A stretch of DNA of 44,339 nucleotides from Bradyrhizobium sp. (GTDB taxonomy: Bacteria > Pseudomonadota > Alphaproteobacteria > Rhizobiales > Xanthobacteraceae): positions 1-44,339 of the forward strand of contig DASSGM010000191.1 in assembly GCA_035693465.1 (NCBI GenBank). Direction: 5' to 3'. Positions within the stretch are counted from its first letter, which is position 1. Each line of letters opens with the position of its first letter. Under the pieces are notes generated by a model, which did not search any database, was not told the origin of the DNA, and worked only from the letters and a program-made list of their open reading frames with translations. The position numbers and the translations under genes were made by a program. Below are positions 19,246 to 23,667 of the stretch, one piece after another.

Positions 19246-19306
19246 CCATACACCACTGTATTGACAGCCGCCAGCGCTCGTCCTAGAACCATACAGTCAT
19301 GTATGG
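19246..19306 (+). promoter_or_regulatory. Two TetR-type operators flanking a sigma-70 promoter
   Basis: CCATACA-CCAC-TGTATTG (19246-19263) and perfect CCATACA-GTCA-TGTATGG (19289-19306). Between them TTGACA (19261)-N17-TAGAAC (19284). Confidence 0.8.
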
Positions 19307-19315
19307 AGTCCTCCG

Positions 19316-19666
19316 ATGCGCGACCTCCTGCTGCAATGTTCCGGGCTGGCCGCGATTGCGGCAGCACTAGCTCACGGCGTGCTCGGCGAAACCAAAGTAT
19401 TCGCGCGCGCCACCATCGAGCCGCCGCGTCTGCGCAAGCTGATTCGCCTGGTCTGGCAGGCCGGCACCGTGGCCTGGATCGGCGGCGGCGTGCTCTTGAT
19501 CGCCGCACCCTTGATGGCCTCGGAGCCGGCACGGCACTGGATTATTGTAACGCTGGCATGCGTGTTTGGCTTTGCCGCGCTGGCTAACGCCTGGGCGATG
19601 CGCGGCCGTCATTTCGGGTGGGTGGCGCTCAGCGCGGTGGTCGCGCTCGCGGTCGCCGGATATTAG
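19316..19666 (+). CDS. Small 4-TM membrane protein of unknown function
   Basis: SD GGAG, four hydrophobic segments, divergent from the TetR gene. Confidence 0.75.
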   Translation: MRDLLLQCSGLAAIAAALAHGVLGETKVFARATIEPPRLRKLIRLVWQAGTVAWIGGGVLLIAAPLMASEPARHWIIVTLACVFGFAALANAWAMRGRHFGWVALSAVVALAVAGY

Positions 19667-19726
19667 CGGGGTGATCGAGAACCTCTCTCTACGCCGCGGA
19701 CAGAACTCTCTGATTTCTCCCCACAA

Positions 19727-19759
19727 CTTAGAATGTCTCTAGTTTAGAAGGAGTCTTTT
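19727..19759. promoter_or_regulatory. Tandem Irr-box (ICE)-like sites
   Basis: CTTAGAA-TGT-CTCTAGT (19727-19743) and TTTAGAA-GGA-GTCTTTT (19743-19759), compared with consensus TTTAGAA-N3-TTCTAAA. Upstream of an FTR1 operon. Confidence 0.55.
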
Positions 19760-19819
19760 TGCTCATCCGGCAGCCAGCCGCTAGCTGACAGCATCCATCC
19801 TAAAAAGCGGAAGCGAGCA

Positions 19820-20719
19820 ATGCGAGCGCGGATACAGCCTGGACGACGTCATAGCATTCTGCTCTGTGCGGCCGGATGTCTTTTTTGGGCGAGCAGCGCC
19901 GCGCGTGCGGAGGATGCAAGCTCCTGGCGCGATATCGAGACAAAATACATCTTTGGATTTACCACCGGTTCCGGCATTGGTCTTGAGGGTGAGAAGGAAT
20001 TCACCGTCGACAGTATTGGCCGGTTCGGCAAGCGCGACGGCCACTACGCGGCAACCGAGACAAAATACGAATTCGAATTTACCCCGACCCAGTTCATCCA
20101 GATCGAATTCGGCGCGCTCGGAGCGACCCACAATATCAGCGGCGTGACCGATCTCGATGACCGGCGCCAGGTCGCCTTGAGCGGAGTGTTTGCGGAATTC
20201 CGCTATCTTGCGATCGAGCGCACCTCGAGCAACCCGCTGGCGGTCACGCTGGCATTCGAACCGACGGTGCGGCGGATTGACGAGACCGGCGGCGAGCGCG
20301 TGCACAATTATGAATTCGAAACCATCCTCAACGCCGATCTCGAGCTTCTGAAGAACCGCCTGTTTGCGGGGTTCAATTTGCTCTACGAGCCCGAGATCAC
20401 CCAGACCTTGGCGGGTGATACCGAACGCGAAGCCAAGTTCGGCGGTTCGGCTGCGCTGTCGCTTCGGGTCGCGTCGAGTGTCGTCATCGGCGGCGAGGTC
20501 TGGTATCTCAGGCATTATGACGCCGCCAATCTAACGGCTTTCACCGGCGATGCCGTCCTGCTGGGGCCCACGCTCTATGTCCAGTTCACCCCGAAGATGT
20601 TCATGACCGCGGCTTGGAACACTCAGGTCTGGGGGCGAGAGGTCGGCAACCCCGTATCGCTCAACCTGGCAGAGTTCCAACGCAATCGTGCCAGACTTAA
20701 ATTCGCCGTCGAATTTTGA
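19820..20719 (+). CDS. Exported hypothetical protein, probable outer-membrane beta-barrel
   Basis: Signal peptide ending AARA, many alternating aromatic/polar strands (YEFEFTP, FAEFRY, FAGFNLLYE, LYVQFT), and C-terminal KFAVEF ending in Phe. Confidence 0.72.
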   Translation: MRARIQPGRRHSILLCAAGCLFWASSAARAEDASSWRDIETKYIFGFTTGSGIGLEGEKEFTVDSIGRFGKRDGHYAATETKYEFEFTPTQFIQIEFGALGATHNISGVTDLDDRRQVALSGVFAEFRYLAIERTSSNPLAVTLAFEPTVRRIDETGGERVHNYEFETILNADLELLKNRLFAGFNLLYEPEITQTLAGDTEREAKFGGSAALSLRVASSVVIGGEVWYLRHYDAANLTAFTGDAVLLGPTLYVQFTPKMFMTAAWNTQVWGREVGNPVSLNLAEFQRNRARLKFAVEF

Positions 20720-20756
20720 TCTTCTCTAATCCGGCAACGCTGATAGAGGGTGTATT

Positions 20757-21101
20757 ATGATTATCATCATGAGAAAACTGATCCTGGCCGCGCTTTGCGC
20801 GATCGCGGTGCTGCCGCTCTCTCCATCTCGGGCGCAACAGGCGACGGAGCTTCAATTGACCTATTCCAAGGGCCAGTTCCAGCCGGGCGAATTGCGCGCG
20901 CCGGCTGACAAGCCGATCCTGGTTCGCCTCAAGAACCTCGACGCCAAGGCCATGGAATTTGAAAGCAAATCGTTGCGGGTCGAAAAGGTGGTCGCCGCCA
21001 ACAGCGAAGGCGTCATCAATGTGCGGGCCCTGAAACCCGGACGCTATGAATTTTACGACGACTTCAACGAAAAGGCGCGCGGCGCCTTGGTCGTGCAGTA
21101 G
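20757..21101 (+). CDS. Periplasmic cupredoxin-domain protein (FtrB / EfeO-N-like)
   Basis: Signal peptide, FQPGELRAPA, EFES..LRVEKVV and LKPGRYEFYDDF. Immediately upstream of FTR1. Confidence 0.85.
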   Translation: MIIIMRKLILAALCAIAVLPLSPSRAQQATELQLTYSKGQFQPGELRAPADKPILVRLKNLDAKAMEFESKSLRVEKVVAANSEGVINVRALKPGRYEFYDDFNEKARGALVVQ

Positions 21102-21113
21102 GCGGAAGGGTCC

Positions 21114-21944
21114 GTGCTAGCCGCGCTCATCATCGTGTTTCGCGAGGTCTTCGAGGCCGGATTGATCGTGGGCATCGTGCTCGCGGTGACCGGCTCGGTT
21201 CGGCATCGCAATCGCTGGATCGGCGGCGGCGTGCTGGCGGGGGCGCTTGCGGCCTGCGTCGTCGCCGCGTTTGCCGGCGCACTGTCCCGGCTATTTGCAG
21301 GCATGGGGCAAGAGTTGTTCAACGCGGCGATCCTGGCCGTCGCCGTGACCATGCTGACGTGGCACAACGTGTGGATGGCGCGGCACGGCAAGGAAATGGC
21401 CGGCGAAATGCGCGCGGTCGGACAGGCCGTCGCGGACGGAACCAAACCGCTGTTGGCATTGGCTGTGGTGGTCGGTGTGGCGGTCTTGCGCGAAGGCAGC
21501 GAGGTCGCGCTGTTCCTGTATGGCGTCGCCGCGTCCGACGGTGGGTCGGCCTTGAGCCTCGCACTTGGTGGATTCATTGGACTGGCGCTTGGAGCGGCCG
21601 TTTGCTTCTTGACCTATTTTGGCCTGATGCGCATCCCGCCGCGGGCGTTGTTCGCGACCACGACCGTCCTGATCACATTGCTTGCGGCCGGCATGGCCGC
21701 GCAGGCGGTGGCATTCCTCGAACGTGCCAATTGGCTTACGCGACTCGATACTGTGGTTTGGGACAGCGGCTGGCTGCTTTCGGAAAAGAGCATCACCGGC
21801 CGGACAATGCACACATTGATCGGCTACACCGATCAGCCGACGGAAATGCAGCTTTTGATCTATCTGGCGGTGCTTGTCGTGACGGTCATGCTGATGCGGC
21901 TGACGGCACCCGGACAAGGTGCCCGTGCCGCCGCAACCGGCTGA
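21114..21944 (+). CDS. FTR1-family iron permease (FtrC/EfeU-like)
   Basis: Two RExxE motifs (REVFE, REGSE), about 7 TM segments, QELF and LIGY. Confidence 0.93.
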   Translation: MLAALIIVFREVFEAGLIVGIVLAVTGSVRHRNRWIGGGVLAGALAACVVAAFAGALSRLFAGMGQELFNAAILAVAVTMLTWHNVWMARHGKEMAGEMRAVGQAVADGTKPLLALAVVVGVAVLREGSEVALFLYGVAASDGGSALSLALGGFIGLALGAAVCFLTYFGLMRIPPRALFATTTVLITLLAAGMAAQAVAFLERANWLTRLDTVVWDSGWLLSEKSITGRTMHTLIGYTDQPTEMQLLIYLAVLVVTVMLMRLTAPGQGARAAATG

Positions 21945-21961
21945 CGATCCGGAACACCGCG

Positions 21962-23512
21962 CTAATTCCAATATGGCTTCAGCTTCTCGAATTCGCGAAA
22001 GGCATGCTCGGCCGCGGAAAGTAAAGGCTTGAACCGGGCTTCCTCGTGCCCTGTCAACAAGCCGGCGGCGAATATGCGTCGAGACGGCCTGGCCGATCGT
22101 GCAGCCGAGGCCTTGGCGAGCCGGGTCGTGAGCTTCTCATGCACGATGACGTCGTTCAAATCGCCAAAGCAATCCTGCATGTCCTTGAGCGCCGAAAGGA
22201 ATGACTCTCGACGTTTTTCCTTCTTTTTTCCAGGAAACACCGTCCCATAGAACTCCGCAGCGTAGCGTAGTTTTTTGGCCTGGATCCGAAGCTTGTGCCG
22301 CGCCTGCGCATCGAGTTTTGCCAGCATGCGGCCCCGTTTGCGAATCTTTTTCCAGCGTCGCGTCAGTTGGGCGCGGGCCAGCGTCTTGATCGGCTGCTCG
22401 CAACGCCGGCGCGAGAGTTCGTTTTGTGGCTCGCGCCAGCCGCCGACGTCGAGCCATGCGGCGAGGTCCAGCGTCAGGTCGCGAAATCGCCTCGAGCACA
22501 CCGCCGTCAATGCGCGCGCCACGGCGGCGTCACGCCGGTCCGCCAGATCCTGCGACAGGCTTCGCATTCCGGTCAAGCGAGAGTGGCTCTTTTCGAGCGG
22601 TGCCACGACTCTATTCAGGAAAACGTCGAATTCGCGCGCGGGACCAAGTTCGCTTGTGAGCCATTTCAATTCCCGCTTGATGTCGCGCACTTCCGCTTCC
22701 GCAACAATATCCGAGAATAACGATATCGCCGCGCGCAGGCGACGCAACCCGACGCGCATCTGATGAATGCCCTCGGGGTCTCCGGCGAGGATTGCCGGTT
22801 TGTTAGCGACAATCTGCTTGAGACAAGTAAATCCGATCGATTGGAATGCGGCGCTTGCCGGCAGGTCCGGCGCAATATCAACGGCCTCGCCTTTTGCGAC
22901 TGCGGCGTTCTCGCCGGCAAGAAGTTCGTAACCGCGTTGCGACTTGCTTTTGACCGCAAGTTCACCAGACGTAGCGCGCGCGATTGATCGCGCGAACTCG
23001 AACAGACGTGCTCTGGTGCCTCGCTTCAACTCGAGCTCTGCTTCACACAGCGGTAGCGTACCGTTGCCGGCGTCGATTTCGCCGCGATCGATCGTCAAGG
23101 CGATATCGCAGTCCTTGCGGGTAAGCGGATAGCGGGTGCGCTGCACGCGAGTTTCGAACACTGGGCGCAGTCGCTTGCGCAGTTTCTTGATCCCCAGTGG
23201 TTCGAGTGCCGACGTGTCCGCCCGATTCAGGTCCGGCCGACTGTCGTCGACCGCCGCTTCCCATTCGCCGCGTTCGAACGGGCCTCCGTCATCCGACTTG
23301 ATGGTCTGAATATACCGATTGCCGGTGCGCCGGACGCGCAACGTCAAACCGCTATCCTTGAGTTTCAGACGTTTGGTGTCGAAGTAGACCGAGACCTGGT
23401 TTTCGCTTCGCTTCGACCTGCCTGCCCGGCGGAGCAGGGGCATGCGCCCAAGCCGCGCGAAATTTGCGGATGGCAGCTGCAGCTTGATTTCGATTTCCTT
23501 CGGAGGCGACAC
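21962..23512 (-). CDS. CYTH + CHAD domain protein
   Basis: EIEIK (ExExK), VYFDT, LRVRR, QTIK, EAELELK and KSQRGY, followed by CHAD motifs HQMRVGLRRLR, HKLRIQAKKLRY and QDCFGDLND. Confidence 0.92.
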   Translation of the reverse strand: MSPPKEIEIKLQLPSANFARLGRMPLLRRAGRSKRSENQVSVYFDTKRLKLKDSGLTLRVRRTGNRYIQTIKSDDGGPFERGEWEAAVDDSRPDLNRADTSALEPLGIKKLRKRLRPVFETRVQRTRYPLTRKDCDIALTIDRGEIDAGNGTLPLCEAELELKRGTRARLFEFARSIARATSGELAVKSKSQRGYELLAGENAAVAKGEAVDIAPDLPASAAFQSIGFTCLKQIVANKPAILAGDPEGIHQMRVGLRRLRAAISLFSDIVAEAEVRDIKRELKWLTSELGPAREFDVFLNRVVAPLEKSHSRLTGMRSLSQDLADRRDAAVARALTAVCSRRFRDLTLDLAAWLDVGGWREPQNELSRRRCEQPIKTLARAQLTRRWKKIRKRGRMLAKLDAQARHKLRIQAKKLRYAAEFYGTVFPGKKKEKRRESFLSALKDMQDCFGDLNDVIVHEKLTTRLAKASAARSARPSRRIFAAGLLTGHEEARFKPLLSAAEHAFREFEKLKPYWN

Positions 23513-23544
23513 AAGTTGCTCCGAAATGCCAGATCTCGATTAGG

Positions 23545-23592
23545 AAATTGATCCGATGAAACCCGATTCCTGCTTTTCCGGATCATGCGCCA
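23545..23592 (-). repeat. Degenerate copy of the GCATGATCCGGAAAAG repeat
   Basis: Minus strand CTGGCGCATGATCCGGAAAAGCAGGAATCGGGTTTC resembles the start of 33771-33870. Confidence 0.55.
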
Positions 23593-23667
23593 GAACCTTC
23601 CAATCCGGCAAGAACAGCGAAGGTTCCGGGCGCTGCTGCGTCAAATCTTCGATGGCCGGTTTGGTAT

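Follow-up and report, generated by a model that had tools for sequence, protein, structure and literature searches.

The FtrABCD system takes up Fe(II) in Bordetella, Brucella and Burkholderia (PMC11966278), and the ftrAPBCD operon of Rubrivivax gelatinosus also includes an outer-membrane protein, FtrP (PMC7415376). Here we describe a three-gene set in a 44,339-nucleotide stretch of DNA from a Bradyrhizobium sp. (assembly GCA_035693465.1, contig DASSGM010000191.1, positions 1-44,339), the whole of which we call the window. The set, including its upstream region, spans positions 19727-21944 and encodes a predicted outer-membrane beta-barrel, an FtrB-type cupredoxin and an FTR1-family permease. 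Like FtrABCD, the locus has an FtrB-type cupredoxin adjoining an FTR1-family permease with two RExxE motifs, and the FtrB glutamates and D118 are kept; unlike FtrABCD, it has no FtrA or FtrD, it has a barrel, its permease is of another subtype, and the residue equivalent to H121 is asparagine (PMC11966278). To judge from its sequence, the three-gene set would operate in the manner of FtrABCD without belonging to that system, because FtrA and FtrD are absent; Fe(II) uptake by FtrABCD is induced by low iron and acid pH. The likeness to ftrAPBCD lies in an outer-membrane protein within an Ftr operon and in an iron-regulator box upstream (both predicted, in the case of the window), whereas the Rubrivivax operon retains FtrA and FtrD and is Fur-regulated (PMC7415376). 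In addition, OprB porins are present in FtrA/FtrB/FtrD loci with ICE (Irr-box)-like sites in two genomes (L176:4724-6001 and L177:2469-3881), both of which also have the three-gene barrel system. The OprB porins of the two fetched ftrA/B/D-type loci do not match our barrel profile (A1). The idea of an Ftr operon with an outer-membrane protein is, therefore, not new given ftrAPBCD and these OprB porins, and both leave unsupported the statement made in an earlier sequence-only reading of the window, that no known FTR1 system has a dedicated outer-membrane protein (PMC7415376).

EfeUOB resembles the locus in having an FTR1-family permease with a cupredoxin-like periplasmic domain, but the window locus has neither a DyP peroxidase nor an M75 protein and its permease scores under the EfeU cut-off (PMC9174327). 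Membership of EfeUOB was ruled out on these grounds, the score against NF041756 EfeU being 141 and the cut-off 255. MnoP of Bradyrhizobium japonicum (PMC6011978) and FeoP of Acidithiobacillus (PMC2631029) are outer-membrane proteins that act without TonB and are linked to the uptake of divalent metals, as is predicted for the barrel; their partners, however, are manganese uptake and FeoABC, respectively, and FeoP is an OprB porin. The open-access literature searched in PMC and bioRxiv yielded no description of the barrel family or of the three-gene form. We infer that the set is a variant of the Ftr kind of iron uptake with an undescribed barrel family, and its function is deduced in the same way.

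The three genes probably form one operon, induced at low iron, for TonB-independent iron uptake by way of barrel, cupredoxin and FTR1. At low iron, Irr would switch on the operon, and free (unchelated) iron, most likely Fe(II), would pass the acidic, plugged barrel into the periplasm without TonB. The cupredoxin would bind this iron at the periplasmic side, most likely acting mainly as a shuttle through its three conserved glutamates, and FTR1 would take the iron from the cupredoxin into the cytoplasm. The barrel would probably be an accessory that raises uptake when iron is low.

Barrel, cupredoxin and permease

The three genes are co-oriented, with gaps of 37 bp between barrel and cupredoxin and of 12 bp between cupredoxin and FTR1; this arrangement, noted in the sequence-only reading, is borne out by the open reading frame (ORF) coordinates. 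The first gene (19820-20719, + strand, 299 amino acids) encodes, on the evidence of its ORF and a structural model, an unnamed predicted outer-membrane 12-stranded beta-barrel; it has no Pfam match over cut-off and no NCBIfam match. A probable signal peptide was read by eye at residues 1-30, and the C-terminal residue is Phe. The AlphaFold2 model, built on a 48-sequence alignment, comprises 269 residues and has 12 strands and an N-terminal plug segment of ~28 residues ahead of the first strand (mean pLDDT 93.8). TonB-dependent transporters have a 22-stranded barrel and a large plug; a TonB-dependent receptor is ruled out here by size and fold (12 strands in a 269-residue model), in agreement with the earlier view that the barrel is not of this type. 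Its top fold matches are tied, namely FapF (5O65; Z 22.2, root-mean-square deviation 3.4, 239 aligned) and the COG4313 channel 4RL8 (Z 21.9, root-mean-square deviation 2.8, 237 aligned). The predicted 12 strands, the N-terminal plug and a Z of ~22 liken the protein to COG4313/SphA-type channels, PF13557 and DUF6662, whereas its identity to the solved structures is 6-9% (6-8% for FapF) and it stays under both family cut-offs: PF13557 gives 15 bits (cut-off 22) and DUF6662 (PF20367) no match for the window barrel, and each cut-off is exceeded by 3/45 relatives. Conversely, profile A1 matches 5/5 DUF6662 members over cut-off, at 35-58 bits. Since its relatives score weakly against PF13557 and DUF6662, the barrel is, by these profile comparisons, a remote unnamed branch of the PF13557/DUF6662 superfamily. 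We know of no metal role for the COG4313/SphA-type, PF13557 or DUF6662 families. A PDB sequence search with the barrel profile gave no meaningful match, matching clusters in the ESM Atlas are labelled hypothetical, MetA-pathway or DUF6662 with no function attached, and a plasmid search returned only 3 distant matches (33-40%). Longer (fused) forms were absent among 7,993 candidates for the barrel profile, which is weak evidence; separately, we observed a 590-residue protein (P0173) in which an 8-strand-type OMP_b-brl domain is joined to a barrel of the window family.

About 15 strand Glu/Asp residues are conserved in at least 90% of the clade of cupredoxin-linked barrels described below, often at alternating positions, and E135, E174, D214 and E268, together with H202 (mature numbering), are kept in this clade but not in paralogs linked to pyrroloquinoline quinone (PQQ) genes. 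In the model the conserved acidic residues would face the barrel lumen, because they alternate along the strands. The predicted complex of barrel and cupredoxin has an ipSAE of 0.44, the best control giving 0.00, with a contact agreement of 97% and a partner pLDDT of at least 89. The mark is reached by 116/157 solved pairs and 2/215 mismatches, but at scores of 0.60 or less by only 18/157 solved pairs and by both mismatches, so that the prediction weakly supports contact between the two proteins.

The same fold comparison raises the idea that the barrel, in the manner of FapF, exports the cupredoxin or displays it at the cell surface, where iron would be captured or oxidised. FapF is, after all, a top fold match (tied with 4RL8), and barrel and cupredoxin are the tightest-linked pair. 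Identity to FapF is only 6-8%, however, barrel paralogs without a cupredoxin exist, and the cupredoxin is a folded protein of the FtrB type, which is described as periplasmic (PMC11966278) and which also adjoins FTR1 where there is no barrel. We consider such export very unlikely.

The second gene (20757-21101, + strand, 114 amino acids) encodes an FtrB-type (Cup-II) periplasmic cupredoxin, assigned by PF13473 (Cupredoxin_1; 95 bits, cut-off 27) and by its closest solved structure, FtrB itself (8VUK, E 1e-19). With the 12-strand plugged model, these matches uphold the identities that the sequence-only reading gave to the barrel and the cupredoxin. Equivalents of E84, E86, E93 and D118 of FtrB are retained, and the H121 position holds Asn. 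In FtrB, the three glutamates bind an Fe(II) mimic and D118 is an essential copper ligand, while the H121A variant retains copper binding with altered redox behavior; Rubrivivax FtrB is reported not to bind copper (PMC11966278). Because the glutamates are kept, H121 is replaced by Asn, H121A alters redox behavior and Rubrivivax FtrB reportedly binds no copper, a role for the cupredoxin as iron carrier is better supported than one as ferroxidase, at least as far as its sequence indicates.

The third gene (21114-21944, + strand, 276 amino acids, GTG start) encodes an FTR1-family iron permease (PF03239, 115 bits, cut-off 25.3). Both of the RExxE motifs previously claimed are present, as REVFE at residue 10 and REGSE at residue 126. 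The permease is ~28-31% identical to canonical FtrC and belongs to another subtype.

Linkage and missing partners

Survey of the gene neighborhoods confirmed the expected linkage: among 80 barrel-profile loci, a cupredoxin is found in 76/80 and FTR1 in 47/80, and 3 of the 4 cupredoxin misses stand at a contig end. The compared genomes, of which those closest to the window belong to the Bradyrhizobium group, are kin, so these and the following counts are not independent and do not amount to a statistical test. A member of the barrel family occurs in 136/301 family genomes, mostly as paralogs of 35-45% identity without a cupredoxin. Quick maximum-likelihood trees place the cupredoxin-linked barrels on one side of a branch (SH-aLRT 98). 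This clade comprises 94 loci, after 6 duplicate sequences were dropped (38 near-identical rows had been left out of the first tree), with cupredoxin and FTR1 at 54, cupredoxin only at 36 and neither at 4. The clade's 'iron' label took in 4 barrels without a visible cupredoxin, of which L039, L058 and L062 are truncated and L066 is a real loss. L039 is a 2.5-kb contig labelled Bryobacterales that nests among Bradyrhizobium sequences and is likely mis-binned. One locus from another family, found by way of its cupredoxin (L255), encodes a 36%-identical barrel that the tree puts within the clade; cupredoxin and FTR1 come next in the gene order, and the ICE-like sites have 2 and 3 mismatches. In Pseudolabrys-type genomes, barrel plus cupredoxin and a second cupredoxin plus FTR1 lie at separate sites, most with an ICE-like site, and the separate permease is 60-66% identical to that of the window. 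Five Afipia/Nitrobacter-type loci (L023, L047, L048, L087 and L089) retain barrel and cupredoxin and show a DDFG motif; FTR1 does not adjoin them.

The claim that the system does without FtrA, FtrD and EfeB was also supported. None of these proteins, nor M75, was found in the window's own 3-Mb assembly, which is 59% complete and is the only genome that was searched for the M75 domain. Moreover, we examined 36 distinct genomes that carry the system (37 handles, two of which are one genome); for 18 of these, completeness is put at 90% or more. FTR1 is present in 34/36 and FeoB in 18/36, and 12/18 well-assembled carriers have no FeoB. FtrA (PF10634) gives a strong match in 4/36 and a weak partial one in 3 more, FtrD was found with one query in 2/36, and DyP occurs in 4/36; none of the three is at the locus, and FtrD, where present, sits in a separate canonical locus. 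Because FtrA, FtrD and DyP are missing from most of the 36 carriers, the absence of FtrA, FtrD and EfeB is, on these predicted gene contents, a property of the system and not of an incomplete assembly. The locus could instead belong to an FtrABCD or EfeUOB system that is dispersed over the genome, with the absent components encoded at other sites, as the incompleteness of the window's assembly and the few carriers that do have FtrA, FtrD or DyP might allow. The small number of such carriers, half of the set being at least 90% complete, the separate canonical locus of FtrD and the low identity of the permease to FtrC make this highly improbable; partners in trans are largely excluded by the carrier-genome counts.

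Upstream region and Irr

Two ICE-like sites, neither assigned to a strand, precede the three genes at 19727-19743 (distal) and 19743-19759 (proximal), each with 4 mismatches to the consensus, which was taken from PMC1698941. The distal site is conserved among 20 upstream regions, and the proximal site abuts the predicted -35 element of an RpoD-type promoter (19759-19787, + strand) that consists of TTG at 19759-19761, a 17-nt spacer and a GCTA-type extended -10 at 19780-19787. These elements agree with the RpoD motifs of B. japonicum, TTG-N16-18-TATA and GCTATA (PMC4842269). A strict ICE search (at most 3 mismatches) matched neither site, and a scan for E. coli-type promoters and terminators missed the predicted promoter and reported no + strand terminator. 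An ICE-like pair 16 bp apart is unique in the 3-Mb assembly and does not occur in shuffled sequences, this spacing having been picked after it was seen. In the alignment of the 20 upstream regions, the tandem sites are conserved in relatives along with the TTG and the GCTA-type -10. Across the loci, an ICE-like site with at most 4 mismatches lies upstream at 83/92 clade loci compared with 6/57 paralog loci, and tandem pairs at 77/92 compared with 2/57.

Irr with a GCP(W/F)HD heme motif is encoded in 5/5 relatives tested. The site centers, at about -59 and -43, fit the activator positions of CRP-type promoters. Irr would bind these tandem sites and activate transcription when iron is scarce. 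Depending on position, Irr acts as a repressor or as an activator, and it activates iron acquisition genes at low iron (PMC7762939). The dependence of the sign of Irr action on position, together with contact between the proximal site and the predicted -35, also suits a different account, in which Irr represses the genes at low iron or the metal is other than iron, so that the operon is no iron-starvation importer; among the proteins listed for a lead-resistance region is PbrT, which is of the FTR1 family (PMC11647595). The iron-binding residues of FtrB and both RExxE motifs are retained, however, and the ICE-like sites lie upstream of the -10 and start region rather than over it. We give this account very little credence.

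An Rfam scan of window positions 18500-23600 gave no match. Three soil RNA runs showed small word shares and gave contigs over parts of the barrel gene and of the FTR1 gene, none of them spanning two genes; two of these runs resemble one data set and may be DNA.

The barrel as an accessory, and its paralogs

Several observations weigh against the proposed low-iron uptake route. Neither of the solved fold relatives of the barrel is a metal channel, FapF being a transporter of polypeptides and the other a COG4313 channel. The H121 position of the cupredoxin is Asn in 48/55 motif matches from three-gene loci, and His in 22/36 motif matches from barrel-plus-cupredoxin loci. Single ICE-like sites with 4 mismatches are at chance level (145 genome-wide; the average over 5 shuffles is 156), so that the Irr-box-like sites named in the sequence-only reading are individually weak, at 4 mismatches each, although they make up a conserved tandem pair beside the predicted promoter. 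The irr gene was not found in the window's 59%-complete assembly. Three genomes hold barrel and cupredoxin without a cognate permease, two of them (G473 and G539) having no FTR1 and the third (G708) a distant one only. A sample of 301 genomes from across the order gave 33 FtrB-like matches outside the window's genome; the 28 loci examined among these comprise 11 with cupredoxin and FTR1 alone, 1 with the barrel, 2 with an added FtrA-like gene and 14 canonical Ftr loci. As a result, 11/12 of the cupredoxin-plus-FTR1 loci without FtrA have no adjacent barrel. Finally, of 14 genomes with the window's permease subtype, 1 has a clade barrel and 4 have a stand-alone match of the fused type described below. 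Because cupredoxin plus FTR1 often occurs without a clade barrel, the barrel is probably not required, and is an accessory rather than an obligatory part. FeoB is present in all three genomes that lack a cognate permease, which suggests that the outer module of barrel and cupredoxin can feed another importer.

These counts could be taken further. If cupredoxin and FTR1 are a self-sufficient importer, the barrel might be only a co-regulated passenger, either a porin of low specificity or a channel for something else that is required when iron is low (manganese, a small chelate of iron, or copper for the cupredoxin), as would accord with the 11/12 loci just mentioned, with the 13/14 genomes that have no clade barrel, and with barrel paralogs that occur in different settings, for instance in PQQ dehydrogenase clusters or near ZnuA. 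On the other hand, the barrel retains its own cupredoxin copy when the operon is split, acidic residues are specific to the barrel clade, a contact between barrel and cupredoxin is weakly predicted, and permeases of this subtype occur in fusion with related barrels. The last point concerns long relatives of the permease: among the best 120 (49-62% identity), 118 have 495-540 residues and 117 have a common C-terminal domain. Compared with a broad barrel alignment, this domain gives an hhalign probability of 90% (E 1.6e-6), which falls to 15% with a narrow alignment, a further point against the proposed route; the domain may nonetheless be a remote homologue of the barrel family. In these proteins (P0272-P0391), FTR1 of the window subtype is joined to the barrel-like domain through a signal-peptide-like linker (117/120). 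One singleton (P0300) combines cupredoxin, FTR1 and a DUF6662-like barrel in a single ORF, the window profile matching the barrel part with E 2.5e-13; its cupredoxin-FTR1 junction is a possible assembly frameshift. Taking both sides together, we regard a passenger or porin role as unlikely, if by no means negligible, and continue to prefer a barrel that takes part in iron uptake.

Upstream of the three genes lie a gene for a TetR regulator (18688-19224, - strand) and, divergent from it, one for a 116-residue membrane protein with no family over cut-off (19316-19666, + strand). The latter gene is near the barrel in 25/80 loci, all of them in the Bradyrhizobium group; the proximity of both genes to the barrel is probably synteny, which would place them outside the system. 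A CYTH-CHAD gene (21962-23512, - strand) is convergent with the three genes, 17 bp from the FTR1 stop, and is seen in only 3/80 loci. Further away are tandem genes (13689-14027 and 14540-15106, both - strand) that, recognised by eye, we take to encode PII-like (GlnB/GlnK) proteins.

Barrel paralogs with 35-41% identity make up a clade whose members neighbor PQQ dehydrogenase clusters (L115-L125, L130, L134 and others). Among 57 paralog loci, 26 have PQQ-cluster markers, 17 a PQQ dehydrogenase and 4 a small EF-hand protein; in L116, for example, the barrel paralog (3006-3905) is accompanied by an EF-hand ORF (4189-4578) and a PQQ dehydrogenase (4709-6577). The small EF-hand proteins are presumably lanmodulin-like. 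From this gene context, the PQQ-linked paralogs are possible TonB-independent channels for a lanthanide, PQQ or an alcohol substrate. Paralogs of another, separate clade sit immediately upstream of ZnuA-type binding proteins (L199:916-1986, L129:2758-3858 and L234); the one in L199 is extended at the N-terminus by a long stretch rich in His, and a CDF-like gene is close by. These paralogs are candidate channels for zinc, cobalt or nickel. The DUF6662 barrels of L194-L198, which are homologues of the window barrel, precede two genes that we take, by eye, to encode an FMN-binding protein and an ApbE flavin transferase.

In its widest form, which we put forward only tentatively and hold to be doubtful, the proposal would make the barrel the founder of a class of TonB-independent, plug-gated, cation-selective outer-membrane channels, with separate clades for iron, zinc-type metals and lanthanide or PQQ; the cupredoxin would dock on the barrel and relay iron to the permease, so that three proteins would make up a complete route across both membranes without FtrA, FtrD or a peroxidase. 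Outer-membrane passage of unchelated iron is usually left to general porins, and the three-gene set offers a testable candidate for an outer-membrane gate for such iron in soil Xanthobacteraceae. As a minimal Ftr system, it also bears on the standing question of FtrB function, as a ferroxidase or as an iron carrier alone, because no FtrA or FtrD is there to provide the redox chemistry and one of the proposed copper ligands is exchanged. Among the sister clades, in turn, are candidates for channels that serve zinc-type metals and lanthanide or PQQ pathways.

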